DNA of 61,976 nucleotides, filler included, from Aduncisulcus paluster (taxonomy: Eukaryota): assembly GCA_024181965.1 (NCBI GenBank). It is 9 parts of 9 records of this genome, joined end to end, with 100 filler letters (N's around TTAATTAATTAA, not from the genome) between each part and the next. Parts side by side here need not be neighbours in the genome. Positions count along the whole stretch, not along the records: positions 1 to 16,842 come from BQXS01011264.1; 8 more parts are not named here. The stretch is one strand, 5' to 3'. Positions 1 through 56,947 of the stretch are shown here, in pieces. Under the pieces are notes generated by a model. It was not told the origin of the DNA and did no database searches. It was given only the letters and a program-made list of their open reading frames with translations. Numbering within the stretch: position 1 is the stretch's first letter; every line of letters starts with the position of its first letter. The position numbers and the translations under genes are program-made.

Positions 1-459
1 GACAAAAAAATTGATACCACGGGAATTCACCGTGTCTATTATCAATATCTTTGTCCGTTTTGGCATGAAAATGTTGTCAAAAGAGCCTTTAAATGGTCCA
101 AACAGGGTTCCATGGTAATAATAACGTTTATCATCTGAAATTTTCAAGGAAACCCGTGACAATATTATATTAAATAAATAATATCCGTATAGATTCAATG
201 AAAGTGCGATGACGAGCGAGGTACGAAAAGCAAAATCACTCTGAAGGTGATATAGAAGGGTAGCGCAGGGAGAAATCAAGAAAAAATTTATTTGAGTAAA
301 ATGGCATAATGAATCAACTGGAGAAGCCTTCTCTGAAGACGAAAATAAGCAAGAATACAATTTGAGACGCCAAACGGTCTCAACACAGTAAATCAAAATA
401 AATACAATTTGTTGAACAATTTGATCATCTCGAATCTTCAAACGCAATGAAAGAAAAAC
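1..459 (-). CDS. Probable coding exon of unknown protein, runs off the window start
   Basis: Stop-free minus-strand frame of about 150 codons (VFLSLRLKIRDDQIVQQ...NSRGINFFV) starting right after an in-frame TAG that could be an acceptor. No recognisable motif. Confidence 0.35.
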
Positions 460-795
460 CTATTATGTAAAATTGTCACCATAATTATGGTTTAGGAAGA
501 CAATTTTTTTCGCATAAAATAGATCCAATAAAATAGAATTAATGATGAGTTTCTCAATAAAACCCAAAAATAGAAATATCATCATAAATCTTGAACCCAC
601 AGTGTTGTGTTATAAATATAATAAATCATAATGGTAAAACGCTAAATGGTAAATAATAATAATAAAATAATATATCAAATAAAAGTGTAAAACGCACACA
701 AATGCCGCGAGATATAACAATAATAACAATAACAATAAACAAAAGAATGATTGAGAATATTTTACGAGGTTGGTATATATATATATTGCTTATTT

Positions 796-3711
796 TTAAC
801 CACCCCTTGTATTCTTTCTAATTTCAATTTCTTTTGTTATCATCTCTTCTTTTGCCCCATCAAGCTTCTTTTGAAGCGCCCTCTGTTTCTCTCTAAGATC
901 CTTTACGTGTGCAACAAGTTGTTTGGCATCAGCTTGAACCTGTTTCGAACGCTTTCTCTTTGCAGCTAAACTTTTATGTTTTTGCTGGTCTCTTTCAGCA
1001 GCAGAGTTGAGCATCCACTTTGAATTCTTCTCAGCATATTTCAATTTACGGGCACTCACTTGTCGAAACAGCTTCATTTGCTTATTAAAGCCTTCAACAA
1101 GACTTTGAGCAGGTTTTGCAACATCTTCTCTCGCAATAGCAAGGTTTTGAAGTAATTTATCAATCGAATTGGCGAGTTTCACTGCCGAATCCCTCCAGAA
1201 AGATGCTTGGGGACGTTTAGGAGGGATTAGTTTGCGTGCAGTTGGAATACCATCCGGATATGCCATGTGCAAGTTAGCTCTCCAGATAGACATAGGGATT
1301 GATTCGAGTGGAGATTTGAAGAGATCTGTCTGCTGACTCAACAAAGCAGCGGCATCCATTCCTCCTTTTGAACCTTCAGATGATCCAAACTGTGAACTGG
1401 TGCTTCCTTTCTTCTTGGAGCCATCGGGACCATTCCCAGCAACACTAATGACCATTCCTTTGACACCCGATGTCTTTCTCCGATCTGTGTGAAGTGGAAC
1501 GATTGGGAGCATCTTGCCCTTCAGATAGTGATCTTGATGGTCTGAATACACAGATCCATTTGTGTTAACGAGGGAAAATGATTTGTGAATGGCACGTTGC
1601 TTCTCTACATTGCAAATGATTACCACGCCACGCTTTTCCTGAGTTAGCGCAACACGCCGAGAAAAGGCAAGATGAATTCGAGTGGCAGACAAAATTGCCA
1701 TTACAATCTTCCGAAGGGAATATTTCCTCTTCTCAACAGGATCAGATATATCAAAAACACTCTGGGCATTGTCAGCGGTTATTCCGTTCGACATAATGAC
1801 CTTCGAGCGGTGTGAAGAAGTGAACCTTGAGGCTTGAGTGAACATAGTACGTCCTGGCTTGTGAGCAACAGGTCTCCTCGAACCGCCCTGTGGATTGGCA
1901 GAAGAGTGGACCAATGAGGATGAAGTTGATGTGGAGTGACGCGGGGCTGTGCGTTGTGTGGACGAACTCCCCGAAATACCCAAACGCATCCGAGCCCTCA
2001 GAGAATCCAACGAAACGGCCATAGCACTTGACTTGCCGACAAAACTACTGTGCTGGTGAACACCTGATCTATTCTTATTCCTCGGTATGGGTGGCAACTT
2101 TCGAGCAGAAGGACCAATCTCATCGGGCGCCGTGTGAAATGAGACTGTTCGTTTAATAGGGCCAGAAGGAGAAGGCTCCTCAAGGAAATGCAGGGATCTA
2201 GATATTCCAGAATCGGTATGAGAATGCCGGAGAGATGATGAATCAGATACGGCACTGCATTCATGTTCATCCTCGTCTTGCCCATACTCATCATAATCGT
2301 ACTGATACTCGTATTCCATAGATGCTTCAGGATCACCAGCTGTACACACAGCTTTTTCAGCAGAAGCTATTCCATCATCGAGGTGTGTTATCTGTTCTAT
2401 TTTTGGATCAACACCGGTTGTGGAACGTTGATCGGTGGCAGGAGTAATGTCAATCCCATCAACCGAGATAAGAGAAGGAAGAGAGGATTGTTGGAGTTGA
2501 GACGGTTGCTCAGTAATGTCACTGCCCCCGCCGAGAGAATCAACAGATACTGCAATCTTAAATTTCTTCACTTTTCTTCGGCTTTCTTTCCTTTTCTTTG
2601 CTCGCAACAATTTGATTTCTTCTTCTTCAATACGTTTTTCCTCTATACTCTTGACTGAATTTATCCTATTAATTGATGGTAAAAGAAGCATTTCAAGGTG
2701 AGATGACATCGGAAAACATGAAGTCCTCAATAAATACAGGCGGCATGCCGTCAAAATAAGAATAATGTCGCCAACAGTTCGGTAGAGAAAACCTATGAGT
2801 TGAATACAGGGGATTGTGTGAGGAGGAGGAAGGGAGAGCGACGAGTAACCAACTTGCATTAATTGTTGGGGCGGTGATTTCGGAGATGGAATTGAGAGGG
2901 GAATCACACCGGGACCAGTCTGGTCATGGGACACAGAGGAAGGTGGGGAAAGAAGTCTACCATGAGATGATTCGGGTTTGGGACCTGTAGGAGATTTTGG
3001 AACAAATTTTGAGGTGGCCATGGTTACATTTTGACCCCTTTTTAGTTGTCTTTGGCCCATGGAAGTGCTTCCATAACTTATTTTCTTAACAAGAGCACTC
3101 TGTTGTTCAGAGACATTCTGTTCAAATTCTGATGGTGGATGAAACTTGGGGCGATACGCCGAATCACGACGAGTCGGATCAGAAAGAGATTTCCTTTTAT
3201 CTGGTTTCATTTTCTGTTGGTAGATTTTAGCCTTTTTAACAGCGTGATCTCCAAAATACGAATCTGAAAGTTTAATTAGATCCTCAATACTTTTTTGAAG
3301 TGTTGGCATCAATGACGATATGGCATATAATGGACCAGCAGCAGGAACACCACTGGATGAGCTTGGAGCGGGAATACAGAGAACACGATAAGCAAAAACA
3401 TCATCACGAAGACTATTAGGAGCAGCTACAATTGGAATAATTTGATTATCAGGAACAGATTCAAGGGAAGCTAGGATTCGACAACCTCCTTCAAAAACAC
3501 TCTTAATTGCTTGATATAATGAAATAATATCATTTGGTACATGATATGTTAAACACTTCATGTCTGGAAGTGAATATTTTGAGAGTAATGAACGAAGATC
3601 TGAACCATAAAGACACAAAGAGTCACTAAGGTGGTATTTTTTTGCTAATAAATCAGAAATGGTCGATGGATTCTGTTCATGATCAAAATATATGGATGAC
3701 CATTCTTCCAT
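796..3711 (-). CDS. Hypothetical ~970-aa protein, Ser-rich/disordered with C-terminal coiled coil
   Basis: Long ORF (track 796..3891). The likely start is the ATG at 3711 (MEEWSSIYF), since the upstream codons are AT-rich intergenic-like sequence. No family recognised. Confidence 0.8.
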   Translation of the reverse strand: MEEWSSIYFDHEQNPSTISDLLAKKYHLSDSLCLYGSDLRSLLSKYSLPDMKCLTYHVPNDIISLYQAIKSVFEGGCRILASLESVPDNQIIPIVAAPNSLRDDVFAYRVLCIPAPSSSSGVPAAGPLYAISSLMPTLQKSIEDLIKLSDSYFGDHAVKKAKIYQQKMKPDKRKSLSDPTRRDSAYRPKFHPPSEFEQNVSEQQSALVKKISYGSTSMGQRQLKRGQNVTMATSKFVPKSPTGPKPESSHGRLLSPPSSVSHDQTGPGVIPLSIPSPKSPPQQLMQVGYSSLSLPPPHTIPCIQLIGFLYRTVGDIILILTACRLYLLRTSCFPMSSHLEMLLLPSINRINSVKSIEEKRIEEEEIKLLRAKKRKESRRKVKKFKIAVSVDSLGGGSDITEQPSQLQQSSLPSLISVDGIDITPATDQRSTTGVDPKIEQITHLDDGIASAEKAVCTAGDPEASMEYEYQYDYDEYGQDEDEHECSAVSDSSSLRHSHTDSGISRSLHFLEEPSPSGPIKRTVSFHTAPDEIGPSARKLPPIPRNKNRSGVHQHSSFVGKSSAMAVSLDSLRARMRLGISGSSSTQRTAPRHSTSTSSSLVHSSANPQGGSRRPVAHKPGRTMFTQASRFTSSHRSKVIMSNGITADNAQSVFDISDPVEKRKYSLRKIVMAILSATRIHLAFSRRVALTQEKRGVVIICNVEKQRAIHKSFSLVNTNGSVYSDHQDHYLKGKMLPIVPLHTDRRKTSGVKGMVISVAGNGPDGSKKKGSTSSQFGSSEGSKGGMDAAALLSQQTDLFKSPLESIPMSIWRANLHMAYPDGIPTARKLIPPKRPQASFWRDSAVKLANSIDKLLQNLAIAREDVAKPAQSLVEGFNKQMKLFRQVSARKLKYAEKNSKWMLNSAAERDQQKHKSLAAKRKRSKQVQADAKQLVAHVKDLREKQRALQKKLDGAKEEMITKEIEIRKNTRGG

Positions 3712-3900
3712 AATGAATACTAGAGTGAGTGTGTAAACAAATCGAGGGATTCCATAACCAAGCAAAACAGAAAGGATTTTGGTGAATAGTTTAAACAAAT
3801 AACAAGTATATTGCAAACAATTGTTAATCATAATTCGAAAATACGCAAAGAATAGGGAGATAATAATAAAAATATGATATACGCAAATCATGAATTATAT

Positions 3901-4366
3901 TTATTCAGAGGCGTAGGGACGGATCTGGTAACCAACAACGGAGGTCTTGTTAACCTTGTAAAGGTCACGAGCTTGTTTCTTGAAGAGGTATTGTTGAACA
4001 AGGCACTTAACGTAACGCTTGGCGAAAATGTTACGAGAAGAGAGACGGATAGTGTCTTGATCAATATCTATGTTCAAAGAAGAAGTTTGTCCCTTAAGAC
4101 CACGCTTCTCAGCCTTGAAATGACGGAGAATGTAGTCTTTCTAATATTTTTGAAATCGAAAATAATTATCAATGAAATATTTAAAATAATAAAATAATTT
4201 TTCAAAATAAAGGAATATCATCAGTAAGAATACCTAAAGCTCACAATCTAAGGAGTTATGATAAAAATATGGAAATACGTACGAAACCCTGGACATTGGC
4301 AACTTGCTTGTCAACCTTGGAGAAGTCAACGGTGTAAGAAACACGTTTCTTGATCTTAAGGGCCAT
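3901..4366 (-). CDS. RPL22: 60S ribosomal protein eL22 (L22e), two exons
   Basis: Exon 1 4366-4283, intron 4282-4141 (GTACGT...TAG, 142 nt), exon 2 4140-3901. Spliced product is 107 aa, MALKIKKRVSYTVDFSKVDKQVANVQGFKDYILRHFK...FAKRYVKCLVQQYLFKKQARDLYKV...YQIRPYASE, which fits the L22e pattern (F.KRYLKYLTKKYLKK..LRD..RV). Not in the ORF track. Confidence 0.9.
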
Positions 4367-4764
4367 CTCTAACTCACAGTCGCGAAGATTGGAAAATAAT
4401 GAATTGGTCGAAAGTGAGAATATATCCATCCTATTTTTGGATCAATTCATCTCCACAGCTAATTCAATTAATATAATATTTTTTTCAATGCCATATATAA
4501 CAATTACAGAATTAAATCTAAAACTGAGTTCTTTATTTCAATATATCCTGTATTTTACACTTTACATCGAAATCAAACTTCTCCTCTTGAATAAAGCATA
4601 TTTATAAAAATTCTGCTCTAACATTGCAAAATTAGGCAATGTATTGTTTAAAAACTATATGTATTGGAGATATTTAGCCAAGAGACAAAAAGACATCACT
4701 CCGCATAAATTACAAAAAACAATCCAAAATTCTTTATTGTTTTTCAAAATAATCCTCTATTTCC

Positions 4765-6318
4765 TTAAAAATCTTCAACTATATCATCAATTCCATTGGC
4801 CTTGTTCTCAGCAATCTTACGTTGATATTTCTCGTTCCAAGTTTCCTTATAGTTGGCTCCATACCACCAAGCAAAAACGATAACGAGCGAGAGACAAAGT
4901 GAGAGAATGAATATTCCGGTGTTCCAAGCAGGAAGGATATCAATACAACTCTCAACAACATCACCATTAACAAGGGATTGACAATGCTGAACATTGGCAT
5001 CAATTCCGTCACTTGAAGGAACAAAAGTAGCAAATGTCTGATCGGTACGAGATGGGTATACCCTGAAGTAATAGTTTGAGAATTCATCTGGGATAGTTTT
5101 CTTTGAGTCAGGTTCATTGGGAATGTTGGCAATCAAGAAAGCACAGGCATCAGAATCTACGCTCATTTCAGTTCCGTCAGAGAGGACAGCCTTTCCAACT
5201 TCGTGTTCATAGTATGTCTGAACGAGAATGTGGGTATCTTTGGTAAGAACGTGGTCTTCCTGATAACCAGTGAAACCAACATTATATCCAGCTCCAGCAA
5301 AACCAGCCTGAGCAACGATGTTCTGCATAACAGTTCCTCCATTTGAAGGAACTGAGGCATCTGACTCCTTACCGGCAACAGCAATAAAGTAATTAGTAGC
5401 CATCTGGAATCCAACGAGAGACTCCTTAACATCTTCATAATAATAGTTGGCCTCAGTGACAACGACCTCAGATTCAAGGTTGTCGTAGAACTTAGGGTTA
5501 GGGATGCTAGGCTTGTCATAGAAATGAACAATACGATGAGCAAGAGTGAGGGGGATAACGCTCCTATCAACGACAGTGGGTTCATATAAATTATAGAAGA
5601 ATGTCTCAAAATCAAAAACATCCCCTGGGGTGTAATCTAAAGTGTGGCTTGAAGAGGCAACTCCTGAAGCGTAACTGTTAGATCCATTGACACAAAAGTT
5701 GAAAGCTTGGAGGAATCCGATACAACCGGGGAGAGAAAGACCCTCACCCATGAATTTAGCACCATTGTATACAGAGTAGACGATCGTAAGATCCTTAAGA
5801 TCATCGTAGGGGAATTTGAAAGGAGCTTTTGTAGTATCATAAGTAATCTCACCTGTGTAAAACTCTCCACCTAAAAATCCGTAATCGTTCCTGCTCATAA
5901 CGGTAAGATTGGCTTGGATGAGCTCAACAATGGTGTTAAAATAATACAATTCAATTTCGCTAATAGAGCAGTCATTAGACGCACTGAAAAGCATAGAAAG
6001 GGCGGTGATTTCAGGATCAACAATGGTTGTATGATATTGTCCACCAAAGACATTATCATCATCGTTGAAGTAAGTGTCCACAATTGAAGTGTTGAAAAGA
6101 TTCCAAACATATTCGTTATCTCCAGTTTGCATCTTAGTAATGAAGCTTCTCAACTTACAAGGAATGTCTCCACTGAAAAGGTCTGAATCATAACGAGCAG
6201 AAGCTTCGTCAGTACCAATATTAAGCACATATGAGGGGGCTTCCAATGGATATTGAACAGCTTTGGCAAAAGTAAGTCCAATAATCAGTGAAACAAAGGT
6301 TAAAAATAATAGCTTCAT
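4765..6318 (-). CDS. Type I membrane protein (signal peptide + C-terminal TM), possibly Ntn-hydrolase (NAAA/C45)-like
   Basis: ATG at 6318 gives signal peptide MKLLFLTFVSLIIGLTFA; TM segment GIFILSLCLSLVIVFAWWYG. Motifs MSRNDY and SLPGCIGFLQAFN recall acid-ceramidase/C45 segments (inference). Confidence 0.75.
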   Translation of the reverse strand: MKLLFLTFVSLIIGLTFAKAVQYPLEAPSYVLNIGTDEASARYDSDLFSGDIPCKLRSFITKMQTGDNEYVWNLFNTSIVDTYFNDDDNVFGGQYHTTIVDPEITALSMLFSASNDCSISEIELYYFNTIVELIQANLTVMSRNDYGFLGGEFYTGEITYDTTKAPFKFPYDDLKDLTIVYSVYNGAKFMGEGLSLPGCIGFLQAFNFCVNGSNSYASGVASSSHTLDYTPGDVFDFETFFYNLYEPTVVDRSVIPLTLAHRIVHFYDKPSIPNPKFYDNLESEVVVTEANYYYEDVKESLVGFQMATNYFIAVAGKESDASVPSNGGTVMQNIVAQAGFAGAGYNVGFTGYQEDHVLTKDTHILVQTYYEHEVGKAVLSDGTEMSVDSDACAFLIANIPNEPDSKKTIPDEFSNYYFRVYPSRTDQTFATFVPSSDGIDANVQHCQSLVNGDVVESCIDILPAWNTGIFILSLCLSLVIVFAWWYGANYKETWNEKYQRKIAENKANGIDDIVEDF

Positions 6319-6816
6319 GGAATGTGGCAAGAAAGAAGATTATGGAAAAAAATTGGCTCTATTTTTAGATGCACTCGATATTCCTATTCACCTTTCAAAA
6401 TGGAGGTCAAGAACAGTAAAGTCAAATCACAGTAACATATTTTATTGATATTATATGAACATTTTCAATNNNNNNNNNNNNNNNNNNNNTCCAATGGATA
6501 TTGAACAGCTTTGGCAAAAGTAAGTCCAATAATCAGTGAAACAAAGGTTAAAAATAATAGCTTCATGGAATGTGGCAAGAAAGAAGATTATGGAAAAAAA
6601 TTGGCTCTATTTTTAGATGCACTCGATATTCCTATTCACCTTTCAAAATGGAGGTCAAGAACAGTAAAGTCAAATCACAGTAACATATTTTATTGATATT
6701 ATATGAACATTTTCAATTTCTTTATGGAATCCGCCCCCTAGAAAATAACAGTCAGATCAAAGTAAAAAAAGTTTATTTTATGAATTACATTTCCATAATT
6801 ATTAATTATCTTGACC

Positions 6817-7782
6817 TTATAACAATTTCTTATTCCTCGGAGGCCTCTGAGGACAATGGATAATGCATGAAGCAATAAAACCCCCAATAAAGCAAAAAAT
6901 AACAAGACAAACTAACAATGCGCTCAAAAACACAATGTCATGATTATATATTGAATTTATAGAAGGAAACGAATACTCAACACCACCTAACGAATCATCG
7001 GAAGTTTTAATATGGAACCAATTGTATATTTTGGATAATAGATTCGTGTAAATAGATTGAAGACGACTTTCTTTATAATAACTTTGGAGGTTGAGATCTT
7101 TTTTCTTCACCATATCAACGGAACTCAAGAACCTATCATTTGTTTGAGTAGCATGTGGATAAGATGCTAGAAATGATGCTGTTGAAGTTGTATGTCCAAT
7201 ATAATCAGCCGAAGAATAAATTGGCTGTCCAAATTGATCCAAAATGTCAGAGAAATTCCGAGAGACTGATGATGTTTCCGACATTGGCCGGCATAATCCA
7301 GAAAAACAAGTAAGTCCACCAAAAATAAGATTTGCATCAGTTGAAGCATCTTCGTAACCTTCAAACGAAGAGAGTGGGGCGAAACAGTTTGATGAAACCC
7401 CACAAGGTTGATGTAACATTGGATGAGATGAAATATTTTCACAAACTCCATTGAAAGAACAAAATTCATCAATATTACACGCATTGGCTGCACTTTGTGT
7501 CAAAATCCACTGGAGATTTGTATCTGTACATTCTGAATAACAACAGATGGATTTCACACTCGATTTATATTGGGGAAGAATGGTGGAAAATGAATCAGGA
7601 TGAGGTATAAAATTCATTGCCCCAAAAGTACCAGGGACACATTCCATGCAAATACCAGCATCAATATGACAGAATTCGAAAGAATCGCATTCATCATCAG
7701 ATGAGCAACAAAATACTTCATAAATCAAACAAATAAACAATAGAATACGAAATATAAAAATATTTAATCGAATACCACTCAT
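6817..7782 (-). CDS. Cysteine-rich type I membrane/surface protein
   Basis: Hydrophobic N-terminus, Cys-rich modules (CSSDDECDSFEFCHIDAGICMECVPG; CNIDEFCSFNGVC; CGVSSNC...LTCFSGLC), C-terminal TM helix and basic tail. Confidence 0.8.
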   Translation of the reverse strand: MSGIRLNIFIFRILLFICLIYEVFCCSSDDECDSFEFCHIDAGICMECVPGTFGAMNFIPHPDSFSTILPQYKSSVKSICCYSECTDTNLQWILTQSAANACNIDEFCSFNGVCENISSHPMLHQPCGVSSNCFAPLSSFEGYEDASTDANLIFGGLTCFSGLCRPMSETSSVSRNFSDILDQFGQPIYSSADYIGHTTSTASFLASYPHATQTNDRFLSSVDMVKKKDLNLQSYYKESRLQSIYTNLLSKIYNWFHIKTSDDSLGGVEYSFPSINSIYNHDIVFLSALLVCLVIFCFIGGFIASCIIHCPQRPPRNKKLL

Positions 7783-8547
7783 TGTAATCTAATTTCAAAA
7801 GAAATCCAAAAAAACATAGAAGACGTCGCAAACCATAATATTTGAGCATATATAAGAGATGACATATAAAGAATAGCCATCATAAGAGACAATTATATGG
7901 AAAAATTCTGATGATGTTGGTTTTTTACAAATGCAAAAAATGAGTGCGAAATGAAACAAATTTTGACGGATTAAAAAAACTCCAAGTTCATATTCCAGAA
8001 GTAATAAATGATGAATACAGGAATACTTATCATTGAATTATTGTAGATGGGCAACAAAATGATCAGAGCTGAGAGGAAATAACTCAAAAGCTCGGAAGTG
8101 AAGAATTATGTGAATTTAGAATGTAGAATGAAACCATAAGTCAAATTAGATTAATGATAAGCACGATCTATGTTCTACATAGTGAACCATCAAAAATAGC
8201 CAGACAACATTCAAATAGAAATACGAATTTTCTCAGAACTCAATACACATCAGTAATAATATAATTGGGTTTCCTTTTTAATTTTTCCTTCCCGAAAAAA
8301 AATATTCTTCAAATAAATATGCACGAAATATTATCAGAAGAACGTGTATCTATTCAACTTCTTCTCTATCTGATCATCACACTTCCAAGGACAATACCAC
8401 CTGCAACTTATTGTAAATATTCATTTTAATTCTGTAAAGATGAATTTTATTTTTTAATCGGCTTATTGCACCAAATAATAGCCATTGCCAAAAATAGATC
8501 TGTGCGCATCAAAATGACAGGATCTCTTGACACAATACAGCGTAATA

Positions 8548-9999
8548 ATGAACACTAGAACATTGTTGGATTATTGTGGTAAACGTAGATGTCAAAGTTT
8601 ATATACCTCATCACATTTTCAACATGATTCTAGAGCTCAACACGACGGTGTTGTTCCACCAATATCTTCCACCAAATCAGATTTACATCCCACCAAAAAA
8701 CAAATCAAATCTTTTGAATATACTTTGAAAACTCAATTGGATGTTCATTATTATGCACTTTACATATGTTTTGTCCGGAAAGTGTTTCGATCTCTTTGTC
8801 GCCGAGAAAAGATATCCTGGACTGAACTCCCAGTTCATTTGGGAGGAAGAAGCCAATTAGAGAAAAAACGTTCCGAGTCATCAGTAATCCCAGCATCAGA
8901 TATTCACCACCCTCACTTTGATCTTGGAGGCAGCCTCCGTCCCCATATGCCCGTTTTTCTTCCTCCAAGAGATCCTAAATATTCTTTTTCTGCCGTTTTT
9001 GACATGGATCATACACTTTTATATGCTTCGTCCAGGAGAATGTCAGGATGCAACGGAAAAGTTGTTGTCTGGGAAGGCCGAAAGAAGTGTAAATATTATG
9101 TTAAAATACGTCCATACGCTCGTAAGTTATTGGAAAAAGTTAGATCTGTTGGTGGAGAAGTTATTATATTTACTGCTGCGCTCCAACCATATGCTGACAG
9201 ATGCCTTTCGATTTTGGATCCTGAAAATCGTTTAATTGACTATAGATTATATCGTGAGAGTTGTATTATGATTGGTGGCGTCGACATTGGTCAAGAACGA
9301 GATCAGCTCTATGAAGACGTCAAAGCTCCAATTCTGCCCGTGGATTTGAAAGCAAAAGCTATTTCAGACGAAAAAAAATTGATGAAACTGCATTATCCTG
9401 CTTTCTTCGAAGACGAAGATGACTCCTTTATTACCTCATCCACTGAGGATGATAGTTCTCCATTCCTCAAATTCGAAGAATTAACATTTACAACATGTTA
9501 TTTGAAAGATTTATCCCGTCTTGCTCGTGATGAAAGAGAAACTTTTCTTATCGACGATTGTCCTGCTTCATATGCTCTTCAACCTCTCTCTGCGATTGCT
9601 TGCAGACAATATTATGGTGAAGATGATGACGAGGGCCTCCTTTTTGCCGGATCATGTCTTTTCCAGGCAGTTCGTGATGGTCACACAGAGAATTGCAGTG
9701 GAATCATTGAAGCTTTAAGAAATGGCCAACAACATATTGAAAGATATCGGAAAGGAAGAGACTTTGAAGATACATTGAGAAAAGATATGGAGACAGCAAT
9801 TTTTTCCACACCAAAAGCTTCTCAAGATCTTGACATTTCTTTCTCACAAACAATTGATGAAGATGAGGATTTACCAACACCTTCTTCCGATAGAAGAGAC
9901 GCACTTATGGAGTTATCTCCAATCAATGAGAAAGAACTTGGATTACCACCAAAAAGTTCCACTCATGTTGATAGTGTTATTTTGAACGTTGAAGTTTAG
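8548..9999 (+). CDS. SCP/CTDSP-like (NIF/FCP1 family) HAD phosphatase
   Basis: DxDxT motif FDMDHTL; VKIRPY; IFTAALQPYAD; YRLYRESC; YLKDLSRL; LIDDCPASY. First ATG at 8548. Confidence 0.88.
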   Translation: MNTRTLLDYCGKRRCQSLYTSSHFQHDSRAQHDGVVPPISSTKSDLHPTKKQIKSFEYTLKTQLDVHYYALYICFVRKVFRSLCRREKISWTELPVHLGGRSQLEKKRSESSVIPASDIHHPHFDLGGSLRPHMPVFLPPRDPKYSFSAVFDMDHTLLYASSRRMSGCNGKVVVWEGRKKCKYYVKIRPYARKLLEKVRSVGGEVIIFTAALQPYADRCLSILDPENRLIDYRLYRESCIMIGGVDIGQERDQLYEDVKAPILPVDLKAKAISDEKKLMKLHYPAFFEDEDDSFITSSTEDDSSPFLKFEELTFTTCYLKDLSRLARDERETFLIDDCPASYALQPLSAIACRQYYGEDDDEGLLFAGSCLFQAVRDGHTENCSGIIEALRNGQQHIERYRKGRDFEDTLRKDMETAIFSTPKASQDLDISFSQTIDEDEDLPTPSSDRRDALMELSPINEKELGLPPKSSTHVDSVILNVEV

Positions 10000-10168
10000 A
10001 GAATTTATTAATTCGATTTTTATTTCAAGCATTAAATAAAATTTAACAACTGTATCTTCCTTTTTTTCGTTATTACGATGGGTTTAGGATTTTTCGTCTT
10101 TTTGAAGCGGAGAGCGCAACCCAACGATTAATCAAAGAATTTTTTAAATAATAATACGCTTTTATAAT

Positions 10169-10480
10169 ATGAGCCTTTGTTTATCATGCATTTTTATTGA
10201 AGCTTCTGAAGCGAAAAAGAGAACTCTCCAACAGGCCGAAAAAATAGCAAAAACATACATAGATGCACTACATTCAAACAAAATTGATTTCCCAACATTA
10301 GCATTAACTCGATCAGATGATGAAATTACTCGACGAAAATGTGGTAGGCTTGGATATGTTACTCGTTCTTTCCCAGTCGCCGGATTTTATGAAAATGGAT
10401 TATCAATGCCTCTTGGTGGAATAAGCGATGAGCCATACCCTGTAGAAAATGGTTATTATATTTTTTGGAGGGAAGAATGA
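10169..10480 (+). CDS. Divergent parvulin (Pin1/PpiC-type rotamase) domain protein
   Basis: RT.QQA...A..Y, FPTLALTRSDD, GRLGYV, SMPLGGISDEP.PVENGYYIF follow the parvulin fold pattern. No WW domain. Confidence 0.75.
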   Translation: MSLCLSCIFIEASEAKKRTLQQAEKIAKTYIDALHSNKIDFPTLALTRSDDEITRRKCGRLGYVTRSFPVAGFYENGLSMPLGGISDEPYPVENGYYIFWREE

Positions 10481-10590
10481 TTTATTTTATTGAAAGGAGT
10501 GAGACCTCACAAACTCTGAAAGTTAGACCTACAAAATAGCAAGCCTTTACAAATTATTGAAAAAATGAATAAATTTGAATAATGGGTCGA

Positions 10591-10991
10591 TCATTCTTTT
10601 AGATCCTGAATGGCTGTAACATTATCTCCTTTTAGTAATATTTCGCCAAGATGTTTTCTTTTTCCACTCTTAATTTCTACTTCATCACAATTAACGAGAG
10701 TTAAATTCATGTATGGATCAAAAGCAACAAGTCTTCCTTCCATTCTTGTTCTAGTATTCTCAAACAACCAAACACTAACTCTTCCGCCCTATCAAAAACA
10801 AAAACGACAATTAATAAAAATTAAACATTATGTATTAAAATAAATTGGTAATATATATTGCATACCTTCTTCACAAGATCATAAACAAAAGACTACAATG
10901 AAAACAAGTTAATTCTAATGATATCAAAGCAAATTTAATCTGAAATAGATATATAAAGATAGTTTAAACATACTGGAACATTCCTACTCAT
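10591..10991 (-). CDS. SNRPE: Small nuclear ribonucleoprotein SmE, three exons
   Basis: Exons 10991-10974 (MSRNVP), 10892-10866 (SFVYDLVKK) and 10788-10591; introns 81 nt and 77 nt (GTATGT/GTATGC...TAG). Product RVSVWLFENTRTRMEGRLVAFDPYMNLTL...KHLGEILLKGDNVTAIQ matches the SmE Sm1/Sm2 motifs. Not in the ORF track. Confidence 0.9.
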
Positions 10992-11168
10992 CGTAATTTT
11001 TTTATAGGCCTCAAAAAAGCCACGTGTATGTGTGTGTGATAAAACATACACAGTCAAGAAGATCAACGTTCAATAGTTTTTATTTTCAAAGAAAGCGCAA
11101 TTCAAAATAATTATATAGTAAATATTTAGAGTATGATTAGTAAAGAACAAACAAATACAATGATTTTT

Positions 11169-14100
11169 CTAATACCCACCACCTAACCTTGAAGATAATT
11201 CCGAAAGTTCATTAGGAACTGGTTGTCCAGCATCGGTAAGCACTTCAACGAGTTCAAAAGTGAGGTTTGCATCCTTGTCAGTGAAGAAGGTGAGAGATTC
11301 TCCCTTTTTACCGGCTCTTCCAGTTCTTCCGATTCTGTGGATATATGTGGTAATATCACGGGGCATTGAGAAGTTGACAACCCAATCGATGTCAGGGACA
11401 TCAATACCACGAGAAGCAACATCAGTGGCAATGAGGAGACCTCCTGTGCTTCCCTTGAAGTTTCTGAGAGCACTTTCTCTAGTGAACTGGTCCTTATCAC
11501 CATGAATGGCGGAAGAAGGGAATCCTTCTCTCTCAAGATCATCAGCAAGGGTATCACAATCAAGCTTCCTCTCCTCGAAGACAAGATACTTCTTGGCTCC
11601 CTGTTCCCTCAAGAACTTGACAAAGTGAGAGAATTTGTCATCTCTGCGGCAGAAAACAAACTTCTGAAGCACATCCTTACAAGCATGCTGCTTCAATGAA
11701 CCCAAGTTGATCTGTTGATAACCACGGGGAAGGAATTGTCTTGCAAGATCCACAACAACCTTAGGCCATGTAGCAGACCACATCAGAGTCTGTTTCTGCT
11801 CATGGATTCGACGTTGGATCATAACAATATCACGCTTGAATCCCATATCAAGCATTTTATCGGCCTCATCGAGAACAAAATAGGTCACACGACGAAGTTT
11901 AAGAACTCTGTTCTGAACAAAGTCCATGAGACGACCAGGGGTTCCAATAGCAATGTCTACACCACTACGGATGATATCAGCCTGTTCACGACGGTTTCCT
12001 TTTCCACCGTNNNNNNNNNNNNNNNNNNNNCTGCTCATGGATTCGACGTTGGATCATAACAATATCACGCTTGAATCCCATATCAAGCATTTTATCGGCC
12101 TCATCGAGAACAAAATAGGTCACACGACGAAGTTTAAGAACTCTGTTCTGAACAAAGTCCATGAGACGACCAGGGGTTCCAATAGCAATGTCTACACCAC
12201 TACGGATGATATCAGCCTGTTCACGACGGTTTCCTTTTCCACCGTAGGCCACACCAGCAACGTAAGGACCTCCGGCGAGGAATTTGTTTGTTTCTTCGAA
12301 AATTTGGATGGCAAGCTCACGAGTAGGGGCCAAGATAAGAACGGAAGGTCCATCCCTGTCACCACGTGGAGGTTGGGCCTGAAGATGAACGATAGCAGGA
12401 GCAATGAAAGCAAGAGTCTTCCCACTACCAGTGTCAGCAATACCGACGACATCTTCACACATCAAAACAGTGGGGATGGCTTGACTCTGAATAGGACGAG
12501 GAGCAGTGAACCCATGATCTTTGATCCTATCGAGCAAGAAAGGAGGAAGATTCATCTCGTCAAAAGTTAAACATGGCTTAGGAACACCGGGAGTACAGGT
12601 AATGCGATGAGATTGACGCCACTCATCGACTTCAGCATCTGAACGTCTTGCAACAACAGGATGTTCGACATAGAATCCCTTCTTGAATGTAGGAACATCC
12701 TCTGTGTGCCAATCGACTTGTTCCAATTCAATATTGTTTTCGCCATCAGCAAAACGACGTTTACCATCAGCATCGGGAGATCCCTGGTCAAATGAACCAC
12801 CAGAGCTCCCACCCCATTCAGGAGCAGGAGCCGAAGATCCAGCTCCGCCCCAACCAGAGTCCGAACTTGATTGAGCAGGAGCTGAAGAACCCCAACCAGA
12901 ACTTGAAGAACTTGATTGGGCTGGAGCCGAACTACCCCAACCAGAACTTGAAGAACTTGATTGGGCTGGAGCCGAACTACCCCAACCGGAACCAGAGGAA
13001 CTTGATTGAGCAGGAGCTGAAGAACCCCAACCAGAGCTTGAGGAACTTGATTGGGCTGGAGCCGAACTACCCCAACCAGAACTTGAAGAACTTGATTGGG
13101 CTGGAGCCGAACTACCCCAACCAGAACTTGAGGAACTTGATTGAGCAGGAGCCGAACTACCCCAACCAGAACTTGAAGAACTAGGTTGAGCTGGAGCCGA
13201 ACTACCCCAACCGGAGCTTGAACTTGATTGAGCAGGAGCTGAAGAACCCCATCCGGAACTAGAATCTTGTTTGACTTCAGAAGAACCCCAACCACCACTA
13301 ACAGTGGTAGGACTAGATGCAGCAGNNNNNNNNNNNNNNNNNNNNGTGCCAATCGACTTGTTCCAATTCAATATTGTTTTCGCCATCAGCAAAACGACGT
13401 TTACCATCAGCATCGGGAGATCCCTGGTCAAATGAACCACCAGAGCTCCCACCCCATTCAGGAGCAGGAGCCGAAGATCCAGCTCCGCCCCAACCAGAGT
13501 CCGAACTTGATTGAGCAGGAGCTGAAGAACCCCAACCAGAACTTGAAGAACTTGATTGGGCTGGAGCCGAACTACCCCAACCAGAACTTGAAGAACTTGA
13601 TTGGGCTGGAGCCGAACTACCCCAACCGGAACCAGAGGAACTTGATTGAGCAGGAGCCGAACTACCCCAACCAGAACTTGAAGAACTAGATTGAGCTGGA
13701 GCCGAACTACCCCAACCAGAACTTGAAGAACTTGATTGGGCTGGAGCCGAACTACCCCAACCGGAACCAGAGGAACTTGATTGAGCAGGAGCTGAAGAAC
13801 CCCAACCAGAGCTTGAGGAACTTGATTGGGCTGGAGCCGAACTACCCCAACCAGAACTTGAAGAACTTGATTGGGCTGGAGCCGAACTACCCCAACCAGA
13901 ACTTGAAGAACTTGATTGGGCTGGAGCCGAACTACCCCAACCGGAACCAGAGGAACTTGATTGAGCAGGAGCCGAACTACCCCAACCAGAACTTGAAGAA
14001 CTAGGTTGAGCTGGAGCCGAACTACCCCAACCGGAGCTTGAACTTGATTGAGCAGGAGCTGAAGAACCCCATCCGGAACTAGAATCTTGTTTGACTTCAG

Positions 14101-14255
14101 AAGAACCCCAACCACCACTAACAGTGGTAGGACTAGATGCAGCAGGCATTTGATCCCAACTATATGAAAAAATAATTATAATTATAAAAAGGGGATATTA
14201 TAAAGAGAAAAAATAAAAAAATAATTATAAAAAACATTCCTACATACCTAGACAT
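11169..14255 (-). CDS. DBP2: DEAD-box RNA helicase, DBP2/DDX5(p68) type, with N-terminal GWG repeat array (locus broken by two gap duplications)
   Basis: Exon 1 14255-14248 (ATGTCTAG), intron 14247-14160, then MSSWDQMPAASS.... Motifs: DBP2-like FKKGFYVEHPVVARRSDAEVDEWR, Q-motif GFTAPRPIQ, ADTGSGKT, PTRELA, TPGRL, DEAD, SAT, HRIGRTGRAG. Stop at 11169. Confidence 0.9.
12849..13293 (-). repeat. Coding 45-bp tandem repeat (GWGSSAPAQSSSSSS), copy with 11 GWG motifs
   Basis: Repeats of ...ccccaaccagaacttgaagaacttgattgggctggagccgaacta... read directly; motifs counted in the translation. Confidence 0.95.
13489..14113 (-). repeat. Coding 45-bp tandem repeat, second assembled copy with 15 GWG motifs
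   Basis: Same unit. Segment 13346-14145 duplicates 12706-13325 but is 180 bp (4 units) longer. Confidence 0.95.
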
Positions 14256-14475
14256 AGCTCCAAATTCAAGTTTTGGATATTCAGTCAATTCCGGATAATA
14301 AAAATCCATAAATAGAATAGAAATATATCTTCATAGGATAGACATTAAAATATTTGGTTTAGTTTTCAATAACAAATTGTATATCTGGAAATCCACATTT
14401 GAACATCATTATCTCAATCAATCCAAAAAAATATTTTGGTCATTACAATATTTATCAGATATTTTATAAATTTTA

Positions 14476-15849
14476 ATGAGCCAATCAATATCTACACCGA
14501 AGAAACTTGTTCGGGGAGTTCATCTTCACTACAATGAGGAAAAGGGTGAATATCATGGAGTTCCAAAAGCATGGTTAAAACTTGGAATTATTCCTGGTGC
14601 AAAAGAAGCGGATTATGGTTCAATTCCTCCAAGTTTAATTCCTAAGGAAGTTCAACCTGATTTCGCCAAAAAGCTATTAAAATCAACTCCTGGAATATCA
14701 TCCAGACCAAAAAATATTAGACATAAAGTTCATGTAGATTTTCATAGTGATACAGGCTTTGTTGGATTACCCCCAGAATTAGAAGCTGCCATGAAGCATA
14801 ATGGAATAACAAAAGAGGAGGTTATGAAACAACCTGACGTAGTGTTGGATGTGTTGACAACATATGTTGATACAGAAGGGTTTTCCAAACAAATTAAGAC
14901 CTTACCAAGGGAAATGACAATTCCTGCTTCCTTGGTGCCTCCTGGACTTCCATCAAAGGCCGAATTTAAGAGACAAATTGCTCAAGTTACATCTACATTT
15001 GCTGAAATTCGGTCAGTTGAAGAAATATGGACAGGACTTGAGCCTGTTGGGCATGGTGCTGCTGGTGTTGTTTATCGTGGCAAACGGAAAGCCGACGGAG
15101 AGATAATCGCTATCAAATCTGTCAAACTAGGCGGAGAAACACCTTTTGATGCCTTAGTTCAAGAAATTACCCTCCAACAAGCTTGTAAACATGAGAATAT
15201 CGTTAAAATTTATCAAAGTTATTTTGAACAAAGAGGACGCTCTCAGCGTCTTCATATTGAGATGGAATTGATGCCAAAAGGAAGTATTTACTCATTTTTG
15301 ACGAAATATGGAACTCCGGGATTTACTGATGAAGCAGTCATTGCTGGGATCTTGAAGAGTGTTTTAAAAGCTTTAATCTATCTTCACTCTCTCCATAGAG
15401 TTCACAGAGATGTTAAGAGTGATAATGTACTTGTTGGTACTGATGGGACTTGTAAATTGGCTGATTTTGGATTTTGTGCTCAGCTTTTGCGTGAAGAAAG
15501 CGCCAGACAAAGTGTTTTGGGAACTCCTTCATGGATGGCTCCAGAATTGATTCGTGGAGTCAGATATGACCATAAAGTTGATGTTTGGAGTACTGGGATT
15601 CTTGCACTCGAACTTGCTGATGGTGAGCCTCCATACCTGTCTTTACCACCTCTTCGGGCTGTTTATCTCATTGTCACTGGTCCAACTCCAAAATTAAAGG
15701 AATCTGCCAAGTGGTCCAAGGAATTTAAAGATTTTTTGAAACTGTGCTTCCAAAAGGATCCTGCCAAACGTCCTGAAGCTCTGGATTTGCTGCGTCATCC
15801 ATTTATCATGAAAGCCAAGTCAACAACTTGCTTGAAAGAATTCAAATAG
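14476..15849 (+). CDS. PAK/STE20 Ser/Thr kinase with two CRIB/PBD-like modules
   Basis: GHGAAGVV, AIK, HRDVKSDNVL, DFGFCAQL, GTPSWMAPEL, GEPPY. CRIB-like ISTPKKLVRGVHLHY...GVPKAW and ISSRPKNIRHKVHVDF...FVGLPPE. Confidence 0.92.
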   Translation: MSQSISTPKKLVRGVHLHYNEEKGEYHGVPKAWLKLGIIPGAKEADYGSIPPSLIPKEVQPDFAKKLLKSTPGISSRPKNIRHKVHVDFHSDTGFVGLPPELEAAMKHNGITKEEVMKQPDVVLDVLTTYVDTEGFSKQIKTLPREMTIPASLVPPGLPSKAEFKRQIAQVTSTFAEIRSVEEIWTGLEPVGHGAAGVVYRGKRKADGEIIAIKSVKLGGETPFDALVQEITLQQACKHENIVKIYQSYFEQRGRSQRLHIEMELMPKGSIYSFLTKYGTPGFTDEAVIAGILKSVLKALIYLHSLHRVHRDVKSDNVLVGTDGTCKLADFGFCAQLLREESARQSVLGTPSWMAPELIRGVRYDHKVDVWSTGILALELADGEPPYLSLPPLRAVYLIVTGPTPKLKESAKWSKEFKDFLKLCFQKDPAKRPEALDLLRHPFIMKAKSTTCLKEFK

Positions 15850-16253
15850 GCTCGTACCAATCTCACATTCCTCTGTCAAAAATACCCTCAAAATATGTCG
15901 AAAGTCAAAATCATTCAAGTGACAACTTTCTATCTCCTTCTTATTTATTTCCCATAACTGGTACTTCTGATTCTTTCTCGTTTCAAGCATGTTGTTCGTC
16001 TTATTCATCATAAATTTCCTTGTTTTTGTGTTTGTTATTTTAGAGCTCCGAAATTGGGAGTTTAGATACATCTTACCTTTCTTTGATAAAAAAAATTTAT
16101 TTTTAATAAAAATAAATGACTCGTGTTAAGTTTTCGAGAAATTTTCATTCGAAAGTTCAACTTTCTGAAAGTTTAAAATACTTTTCAAACTCAAATTCAA
16201 TTTGCTAATGGTCAACTTGGCCAGAATAAGCAAGTTTCGTTGAATATTTAAAT

Positions 16254-16842
16254 TTACTTCCAGGCAGGGAAACCGTAAGGCATGTCAGGTTCATCCTCAA
16301 CAATCCTCAAGATTTCGTTGTACTTGGCAACACGCTCAGATCTGCAAGGAGCACCAGTCTTGATCTGACCAACACCAAGACCAACAACGAGGTGAGCAAT
16401 GAAGACATCTTCGGTCTCACCGGATCTGTGAGAAGCCATAACAGCCCACTTGTCAGAGAGAGCAGTCTTAACAGCATCGAAGGAGTCAGTGATGGAACCA
16501 CACTGGTTGATCTTGAGCAAAAGAGCGGTGGCACCCTTCTCCTTGATGATCCACTCAATACGCTCCTTCTGGGTAACGGAAAGATCGTCAGCAACAATTT
16601 GAACGTGCTTGGGCATCTTGGCGACACAGTGAGCCCAGTTCTTGATATCCATCTGATCGAATGGGTCCTCAATAGAAACAATGGGGTAACGCTCAGTCCA
16701 GTCAAGGTAAAGAGCAGTCAATTCCTCACCAGTAACAATGTTAGGCTTGTCGGCCCACTTTCCGAGATCGTACTTTCCATCAACGTAGAATTCAGAAGCA
16801 GCAACATCCATACAGATCTTGATCTTTCCAGTGTATCCAGCC
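16254..16842 (-). CDS. ENO: Enolase, C-terminal part (5' truncated by contig end)
   Basis: [57 protein letters not shown]. Confidence 0.97.
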
Positions 16843-16942
16843 NNNNNNNNNNNNNNNNNNNNNNNNNNNNNNNNNNNNNNNNNNNNTTAATTAATTAANN
16901 NNNNNNNNNNNNNNNNNNNNNNNNNNNNNNNNNNNNNNNNNN
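16843..16942. other. Artificial contig linker (N44-TTAATTAATTAA-N44)
   Basis: Stop-in-all-frames spacer. Identical 100-bp linkers at 20963-21062, 24804-24903, 37942-38041, 43205-43304, 46650-46749, 51639-51738 and 56848-56947. Confidence 0.98.
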
Positions 16943-20962: not shown

Positions 20963-21062
20963 NNNNNNNNNNNNNNNNNNNNNNNNNNNNNNNNNNNNNN
21001 NNNNNNTTAATTAATTAANNNNNNNNNNNNNNNNNNNNNNNNNNNNNNNNNNNNNNNNNNNN

Positions 21063-37941: not shown

Positions 37942-38041
37942 NNNNNNNNNNNNNNNNNNNNNNNNNNNNNNNNNNNNNNNNNNNNTTAATTAATTAANNN
38001 NNNNNNNNNNNNNNNNNNNNNNNNNNNNNNNNNNNNNNNNN

Positions 38042-42626: not shown

Positions 42627-43304
42627 TGACAACGGAAAAGAGTCGGGATCTAAGAAAAAAATAAAAAATAAAAAATATTACAATACAGTGAATATAATTG
42701 CATGACATCGCATAAAATATGTCTTAATGCGCATTTAATGAAATATATGACATACAGTAAATCTTGAATTGCTTGCAACGAAGGAAAAGCAGAAGACGAA
42801 AACACAAAGTCGCGAATGACAACCTCAGGAAGCAATATCATACAATATATAAATAAATTTATATAGTCATTTTTCTTTCTATCATATATTGCATGCCATC
42901 CTTGTGAGTCCACTCCTGACACGAAATCGTTTCATAACTTCGACATTTGTTTACATAGTGGATTATAAGGTGACAAAATATGCTGATAAGTTGCAGTTGA
43001 AATCTATGAATATTGTGAATATATCATCGACTTCTTGGCAGAGAAGCTATTCTTCTGGTTTTCTTTGCTTCTCGAATCGTTCTCACTCTTCTCTGCTCTC
43101 TGCTCGATTGATAAAAACTAATTCAGTTTATTATTTGTTTATTTTTTGTTTTCTTTCGCTTTTAATTCCTTACCAAGATGTCTTCGAAAGGAATTAACAA
43201 CATTNNNNNNNNNNNNNNNNNNNNNNNNNNNNNNNNNNNNNNNNNNNNTTAATTAATTAANNNNNNNNNNNNNNNNNNNNNNNNNNNNNNNNNNNNNNNN
43301 NNNN

Positions 43305-46649: not shown

Positions 46650-46749
46650 NNNNNNNNNNNNNNNNNNNNNNNNNNNNNNNNNNNNNNNNNNNNTTAATTA
46701 ATTAANNNNNNNNNNNNNNNNNNNNNNNNNNNNNNNNNNNNNNNNNNNN

Positions 46750-51638: not shown

Positions 51639-51738
51639 NNNNNNNNNNNNNNNNNNNNNNNNNNNNNNNNNNNNNNNNNNNNTTAATTAATTAANNNNNN
51701 NNNNNNNNNNNNNNNNNNNNNNNNNNNNNNNNNNNNNN

Positions 51739-55058: not shown

Positions 55059-55680
55059 GTACAGTAGTTGTTTATTTAATAAAATGTTTGGATTGATTAA
55101 TATTATGNNNNNNNNNNNNNNNNNNNNCAAGGAAGAAGTTAAGAAGATGGCTGGCAGACTTCTTGACATGAGAAAGAAGATTTATGATGCTCTTTCTAAA
55201 ACCGCTCCTGAGAAGAATTGGGATCACGTTATTTATCAGAGAGGAATGTTTTCGTTTACTGGCTTAGATTCTCATCAAGTCAAGATGTTAGCTGATGAGT
55301 ACCACATTTATATGGTTTCAAGCGGTCGTATGGCTCTTACTGGATTGAATGACGGTAATATTCAATATGTTGCTGATTCTATTAAGGCTGTTCTTGATAA
55401 AACGGCTAAAAAGTGAGTACAGTAGTTGTTTATTTAATAAAATGTTTGGATTGATTAATATTATGCCTTGATTTGAGTGTAATCGACAATTCTTGTACTA
55501 CATTAGTAATGTCATCAATTGTACGGGGAAATAGTTTTCGACATAAGAAAAATTTAAATTCACAGAAATATATTTCATAATTTTGATATTATCCCATGAT
55601 TAGTGTTATAATATTTTTCTTATTTGGTCGTTTAATAAATATTTGTTTTCTTCGCTCAACAAGAAGAAAAGAAATTCGAA

Positions 55681-56847: not shown

Positions 56848-56947
56848 NNNNNNNNNNNNNNNNNNNNNNNNNNNNNNNNNNNNNNNNNNNNTTAATTAAT
56901 TAANNNNNNNNNNNNNNNNNNNNNNNNNNNNNNNNNNNNNNNNNNNN

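Follow-up and report, generated by a model that had tools for sequence, protein, structure and literature searches.

A DDX5/DDX17/Dbp2-type DEAD-box helicase of Aduncisulcus paluster with a tandem GWG-repeat N-terminus: sequence, assembly artefacts, and candidate roles of the tail

Yeast Dbp2 and human DDX5 (p68) and DDX17 (p72) represent a subfamily of DEAD-box RNA helicases in which terminal tails rich in Arg-Gly-Gly (RGG) or Gly-Arg sequence are common, though not strictly defining. Glycine-tryptophan (GW) motifs occur on another RNA helicase, Arabidopsis SDE3, which is a UPF1/MOV10-like helicase of superfamily 1 and not a DEAD-box protein, and which has few GW motifs and no regular tandem array. 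In GW182/TNRC6, NRPE1, and SPT5L/KTF1, all non-helicase proteins, reiterated GW/WG motifs lie in a disordered, G/S-rich context and form poorly conserved, irregular repeats. A report on Tetrahymena describes a p68-type helicase in a small-RNA pathway in which the GW proteins are separate polypeptides (PMC5200911). A Trp array and a p68-type core are joined in one gene of Aduncisulcus paluster, located in a stretch of 61,976 nucleotides (nt) made of nine joined contigs from assembly GCA_024181965.1, called the window below. On its minus strand, positions 11169-14255 hold an open reading frame (ORF) system encoding a Ser/Gly/Ala/Trp repeat and then a DEAD-box helicase core. A. paluster is a free-living fornicate (PMC9933649), so the 'fornicate-like protist' of an earlier reading made without database searches (the sequence-only reading) was an apt description.

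The helicase gene sits on the first contig of the window (1-16842), and its ORFs match the Pfam families DEAD (PF00270, E 7e-39) and Helicase_C (PF00271, E 1e-27). With the assembly duplications described below removed, the coding sequence (CDS) contains motifs Q, I, Ia, Ib, II, III, V, and VI, in keeping with the complete DBP2/DDX5-type core that the sequence-only reading had claimed. In the PDB, DDX17 was the best match for both core halves (199.5 and 229.4 bits), with Dbp2 at 198.5 and 223.6 bits and DDX46, the next family, at 165.5 and 189.5 bits; the lower-scoring families were DDX53 (142.3 bits, N half only), Vasa (134.4 and 196.8 bits), and DDX3X (~100 and ~185 bits). A Vasa or DDX3 identity of the core is ruled out by these lower scores in both halves. 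The DDX17 match begins at query residue 8 (chain 8-235) and takes in the N-flank of the subfamily upstream of the Q motif (DW..LP.F.K.FY.EHP.V), which is present in the A. paluster protein and kept in a 31-sequence consensus. The best named matches in the protein collection were also DBP2/DDX5, at ~50% identity, and the likeness to yeast Dbp2 and human DDX5 and DDX17 extends over all core motifs. On these matches, which place it nearer to DDX5/DDX17/Dbp2 than to DDX3, Vasa, DDX43/53, DDX46, or DDX23, the gene is one DDX5/DDX17/Dbp2-type DEAD-box RNA helicase of A. paluster; the placement, which had also been proposed beforehand, rests on match scores.

The protein differs from Dbp2, DDX5, and DDX17 at its ends. 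RGG/Gly-rich tails were not found: the N-terminal extension of 202-262 residues (11 vs 15 repeat units) contains two Arg, and just 48 residues follow motif VI in the de-duplicated CDS, which agrees with both the Trp array in place of an RGG terminus and the near-absence of a C-terminal tail noted in the sequence-only reading. The N-terminus is instead a translated 45-nt tandem repeat (unit GWGSSAPAQSSSSSS), with GWG units 13-15 residues apart, plus one EWG, ahead of the core. The low-complexity Ser/Gly/Ala character noticed earlier is borne out by composition, the 11-unit version of the tail being 40% Ser, 16% Gly, 12% Ala, 7% Pro, and 6% Trp. Tandem Repeats Finder reported one 45-nt array (score 939), the sole large tandem repeat of the window, and a degenerate DNA pattern for GWGxxAPAQ had 22 matches, all within the helicase gene, with 0 expected from 100 shuffles. 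In an AlphaFold2 model built on a 31-sequence alignment, residues 1-200 were without secondary structure and had block-mean predicted local distance difference test (pLDDT) values of 36-57, against 81-97 for the core, and the tail is accordingly predicted to be disordered. A Pfam scan of a 268-residue piece of the repeat (E up to 0.01) returned no family, and thus neither Ago_hook nor GW182. Compared with the platforms of GW182/TNRC6, NRPE1, and SPT5L/KTF1, which it resembles in general context, the array is set apart by its near-perfect 15-residue period, its Ser content, and this lack of a Pfam match.

The N-terminal repeat is recently expanded, to at least 11 units. The 11 regular 45-nt units comprise six DNA versions coding for three peptides, and among their nine variable codon columns, seven are synonymous-only, including an AGT/TCT serine switch, giving a ratio of nonsynonymous to synonymous differences (pN/pS) of 0.14. 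The mostly synonymous character of the unit differences speaks for translation of the frame and for constraint on the peptide, and this evidence is modest because the units are few and related. Protein searches gave no relative above 54% identity except the organism's own model, and a scan of metagenome contigs with the N half of the helicase found 528 relatives; among the best 80 loci, which were retained, the top match is 48% identical and none is a close relative.

The A. paluster genome is a short-read MaSuRCA draft with an N50 of 4.6 kb and a BUSCO score of 40.4%, and its gene models were made with BRAKER2 using RNA-seq hints (PMC9933649). Two 20-N gaps lie inside the helicase gene (12011-12030 and 13326-13345), both with duplicated flanks; such duplication marks every one of the five 20-N gaps in the window, with the same sequence standing on either side. 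At 12011-12030, the 215 nt flanking each side are identical, and a 12,099-nt contig of DNA run X1 links 11795 straight to 12031, omitting 235 nt, from which it follows that the helicase ORF is continuous and that part of the DEAD domain has been written twice. Around the other gap, a '15' version (13346-14149) and an '11' version (12031-13323) of the N-terminus have identical flanks (196 nt at one end, 312 nt at the other); their lengths are exactly four units (180 nt) apart. Given the identical flanks and the restart of the ORF at codon 3 after the gap, the 15- and 11-unit versions are one array assembled twice. The motifs described by the sequence-only reading as '11 or 15' plus an EWG are therefore real, but its two counts refer to a single array. 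Two separate GW arrays in one protein were considered and are ruled out, since the copies share flanks and the second begins at codon 3 of the ORF. X1 contigs end at both array edges (12892 and 14042), and for this reason the unit number may be 11, 15, or other.

The de-duplicated CDS has 641 codons with 11 units or 701 codons with 15, with no internal stops in either case, and the real protein is about 641-707 amino acids (aa) long. In public databases, the same gene is represented by a 925-aa model named 'Probable ATP-dependent RNA helicase ddx17 [Aduncisulcus paluster]', 100% identical and starting with MSSWDQM, which contains 25 GWG, two DEAD, and two TPGR motifs. Because this model bridges both gaps, it carries both duplications, and the 925-aa form with 25-26 units and a doubled DEAD stretch arose artefactually from two contig overlaps left unmerged. 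Whatever the tail does, the public model is wrong in doubling the repeat along with a stretch of the DEAD domain, and the type of gap responsible recurs in the assembly. At the three further gaps of the window (6470-6489, 28445-28464, and 55108-55127), 203-338 nt are repeated on both sides, pointing to unmerged contig overlaps there as well, and gene models crossing them may contain duplicated segments as the helicase model does.

Trp motifs on the tails of DEAD-box helicases are recurrent but usually sparse, with the A. paluster array of 11-15 units as the extreme case. Among the 239 DDX5/Dbp2-like homologues listed, the terminal extensions hold at least three non-overlapping GW/WG motifs in 14, at least four in 8, at least six in 1, and at least eight in none. 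The view that DBP2/DDX5 orthologues do not have Trp arrays, put forward in the sequence-only reading, is thus true for the most part, with the 14 homologues of at least three motifs as exceptions. The richest listed homologues are Dbp2 proteins of Sporidiobolales and Kickxellomycotina, in which short GW clusters are mixed with RGG at the ends.

Outside the subfamily, a word-indexed protein search with the tail gave one match only, Rhizopus microsporus P0121, and an exhaustive phmmer search with the tail across 1.84 billion representatives gave 81 matches, many of them Trp-periodic arrays; DEAD-box helicases account for two of the 81 (P0251 and P0309). Pfam families were scanned in 29 proteins, consisting of 27 GW-rich picks from the 81 matches and two helicases added by hand. 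DEAD together with Helicase_C was present in 4/29, half of these being the hand-added helicases, and the other GW-rich proteins scanned included Btz/CASC3, RRM, CCCH, topoisomerase, and Plus-3/SWIB/GYF proteins, a wheat BURP protein, and a Thecamonas cofilin/LIM/SH3 protein. GW arrays are also not confined to RNA interference biology.

In three proteins, as in that of A. paluster, a DEAD-box core is joined to a low-complexity tail with periodic Trp. P0121, a 565-aa protein named 'DED1', is a Ded1/DDX3-type fragment whose three RanBP2 zinc fingers lie ahead of a C-terminal GW array (~445-565), where GGWGSSAPAQ is repeated; the nonapeptide GWGSSAPAQ is common to this array and the A. paluster tail, probably through convergence. 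P0251, a eukaryotic protein of 1146 aa, has three CCHC knuckles and ~20 (S/N)GWGQ.xQQ.K motifs ahead of a DDX3/Vasa-type core (420.7 bits to DDX3X vs 289.7 to Dbp2). It belongs to a 9-member cluster from contigs of ~3.8 kb and represents a helicase of Vasa/PL10-like type bearing a long GW platform. P0309, a 521-aa DEAD-box helicase of Candidatus Synchoanobacter obligatus, has seven KRWGNSS(D/E)..SRDS repeats (~383-497) in a basic tail, and a eukaryote-type Argonaute hook is not expected in that bacterium. All three differ from the A. paluster protein in helicase subfamily; P0121 and P0309 carry the tail at the C-terminus, that of P0309 being basic. Since GW arrays are carried by DDX3/Ded1-type, DDX3/Vasa-type, and bacterial DEAD-box helicases, the combination exists in databases, and the earlier suggestion that such a fusion had not been described holds for the literature searched, where no description was found of a GW-repeat DDX5/Dbp2 helicase or of the GW-array DEAD-box proteins P0121, P0251, and P0309. 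A Protein Atlas search gave no usable match. The A. paluster protein itself is already in public databases under a routine name, and the literature searched holds no description of its combination of GW repeats with a DDX5/Dbp2 core.

What the tail does is a matter of inference, and we tentatively prefer, with somewhat limited confidence, an Argonaute-independent, multivalent Trp-sticker tail that stands in place of RGG tails. Expansion of the 45-nt coding repeat would have produced an uncharged, disordered tail with Trp 'stickers' between Ser-rich 'spacers', occupying the place where relatives usually have RGG/Gly-rich tails. Such a tail may act as a multivalent, low-affinity interaction module, which could lead to self-association or partition into ribonucleoprotein (RNP) condensates, or to weak docking on Trp-accepting surfaces; either way, the helicase would be concentrated on RNP assemblies and Argonaute would not be needed. 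This possibility is ranked first because an Argonaute partner is putative and because similar tails exist where Argonaute is irrelevant. An Argonaute-independent role is supported by the GW-rich wheat BURP and Thecamonas cofilin/LIM/SH3 proteins, by the bacterial KRWGNSS helicase, and by the GW clusters that lie beside RGG in Sporidiobolales and Kickxellomycotina Dbp2.

Several points weigh against a sticker tail. The proposed role leans on an analogy, the sticker-spacer comparison being general background applied to a Trp/Ser tail. To our knowledge, tails of the uncharged Trp/Ser kind are not among the established drivers of condensates in this family of helicases. The pN/pS of 0.14 rests on few events in units that are few and related by descent, and none of the orthologues from the protein and metagenome searches is close enough to tell whether the tail is conserved. 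Moreover, the composition fits the definition of an Argonaute hook very well, its score of 186-254 comparing with 74.5 for SDE3 and 92 for TNRC6A in the study that introduced the scoring (PMC2910046).

That score, the dos of Karlowski et al. 2010, was re-implemented from the Table 1 matrix with dec 8.6, and it gave 186.4 half-bits for the 11-unit tail and 254.2 half-bits for the 15-unit tail. In that paper, the threshold is 6.99 and a 'strong' class above 150 includes NRPE1, SPT5L, and GTB1, while hornerin, with a dos of 161, is given as a likely false positive (PMC2910046). A GW/WG predictor thus places the N-terminus above the 'strong' limit as a matter of composition only, and by composition the tail would qualify as a WG/GW platform of the Argonaute-binding kind. 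The score rises with length and Ser/Gly content, and among the 239 DDX5-like homologues listed, which served as a control, 84 reach 25 half-bits and 1 reaches 150.

It is pertinent to ask whether the GWG motifs enter Trp pockets in the PIWI domain of a putative A. paluster Argonaute/Piwi protein, in which case one helicase would tether one or several RNA-induced silencing complexes (RISCs) and couple unwinding or remodelling to small-RNA silencing. We consider this unlikely, because it requires both that the organism has an Argonaute, which is fairly probable, and that the tail binds it, which is rather doubtful. In its favor, the tail presents 12-16 Trp in a G/S/A-rich, hydrophobic-poor context that scores in the 'strong' class, and its 15-residue spacing exceeds the ~10 residues needed at a minimum for bridging two pockets. 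A helicase with a GW hook also has a precedent in SDE3, listed in Table 2 of the same study (PMC2910046), and p68-type helicases act in small-RNA pathways, an example being Lia2p/Drh1p of Tetrahymena (PMC5200911). The SDE3 protein is like that of A. paluster in uniting an RNA helicase with GW motifs, but its Argonaute binding has been shown by others, whereas that of the A. paluster tail is putative.

The case for such a hook is weakened by the false positives of the score, hornerin among them, by its dependence on length and Ser/Gly content, and by the absence of an Ago_hook or GW182 Pfam match in the tail. Within Fornicata, a paper on newly sequenced diplomonads states that Dicer and Argonaute were not identified in them, unlike in Giardia, and that S. 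salmonicida is similar (PMC11437800). This paper was the only one found in the literature that mentions both Aduncisulcus and Argonaute, and no statement was found on an A. paluster Argonaute. A 2025 survey calls Trp-binding sites 'remarkably variable' outside metazoan Argonautes and does not count them in the shared eukaryotic Argonaute repertoire (PMC12477606). In the window, 22 ORFs of at least 220 aa lie outside the helicase interval; 20 of these were scanned, and none showed a Piwi or PAZ domain.

As doubtful as an Argonaute hook is a largely neutral coding microsatellite, in which slippage or unequal exchange would have multiplied the 45-nt unit within a disordered N-terminus that tolerates it, and the array would have no specific function. 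Many units are identical in DNA, the 11 regular units amounting to six versions, and two assemblies exactly four units apart are what an unstable array would give; the lack of a close orthologue with a conserved array fits as well. Neutral growth accords poorly with the predominance of synonymous differences (seven of nine variable columns), with the retention in every unit of Trp, a rare and costly residue, and with the recurrence of comparable arrays on RNA-related proteins (DEAD-box, Btz, RRM, and zinc-finger).

Still less probable, in our estimate, is the most far-reaching form of the Argonaute proposal, in which the tail would be a genuine multivalent hook wiring a DDX5-type helicase to RISC, and GW arrays on DDX5-, DDX3/Ded1-, and DDX3/Vasa-type helicases of unrelated eukaryotes would be convergent devices coupling RNA unwinding to small-RNA effector complexes. 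Least likely of all is that the tail is a ligand for the Trp pockets of CNOT9/Caf40, recruiting the CCR4-NOT deadenylase or bringing the helicase to it without Argonaute, as GW182 Trp motifs do: CCR4-NOT is broadly conserved in eukaryotes, but the GW182 motifs concerned sit in its silencing domain and not in a regular array, nothing found here links the helicase to CCR4-NOT, CNOT9 is only presumed in A. paluster, and what also speaks for it is the described GW182 binding and W-binding pockets of CNOT9/Caf40 (PMC4737751).

If the tail were to bind Argonaute, it would be the first direct tether between a DDX5-type helicase and Argonaute, and would open a way into the RNA silencing of Carpediemonas-like organisms, a pathway still uncharted there. 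Otherwise, the protein would offer a clean example from nature of a well-studied helicase family in which an uncharged Trp/Ser sticker-spacer tail has taken the place of the RGG tails, and would help in asking what tails of this kind do.

The features of the locus are collected in Table 1. A start at 14255 requires an 8-nt exon and an 88-nt GT..AG intron (14247-14160), both putative, and the alternative ATG at 14149 yields the same protein, 6 residues shorter. Contigs of runs X1 and X2, the latter perhaps RNA, showed no joint for this intron and none spanning the array; X2 leaves 14276-14500 uncovered and both runs leave bins uncovered within the duplicated array, gaps from which no conclusion is taken. 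Version A of the N-terminus ends into the 13326-13345 gap at ...EQVDWH, while the junction between array and helicase in version B is covered by an X2 contig (12502-12887) and by an X1 contig reaching 12892.

Table 1. Parts of the A. paluster helicase locus in window coordinates, listed from the 5' end of the gene
Feature	Position	Strand	Basis or remarks
Putative 8-nt first exon ATGTCTAG	14248..14255	-	Sequence and public-model N-terminus MSSWDQM
Putative 88-nt GT..AG intron, very AT-rich	14160..14247	-	Sequence and public-model N-terminus
N-terminus, assembly version A	13346..14149	-	ATG 14149; 15 GWG units and EWG; array ~13454-14113
20-N scaffold gap	13326..13345	.	ORF restarts at codon 3 beyond it
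N-terminus, assembly version B	12814..13323	-	11 GWG units and EWG, in frame and contiguous with helicase
Short charged linker, DDX5-type N-flank (EQVDWH..FKKGFYVEHP), Q motif, first RecA domain (I, Ia, Ib, II)	12031..12813	-	
Artefact: 215-nt duplicate of 12031-12245 (at 11796-12010) and 20-N gap 12011-12030	11796..12030	.	
End of DEAD (motif III SAT), Helicase_C (V, VI), short tail ...SSRLGGGY, stop codon 11169-11171	11169..11795	-	

The nine contigs of the window are joined by spacers (44 N, TTAATTAATTAA, 44 N) at 16843-16942, 20963-21062, 24804-24903, 37942-38041, 43205-43304, 46650-46749, 51639-51738, and 56848-56947, and there is no physical linkage between genes that a spacer separates. 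Many further long ORFs of the window are without a Pfam family. Two NIF/CTD-phosphatase-like genes lie on different contigs, at 8527-9999 (+) and 30885-32540 (-). Divergent from the helicase, with ~220-330 bp between the start codons, a PAK-type kinase gene (P21-Rho-binding and kinase domains) occupies 14476-15849 (+).

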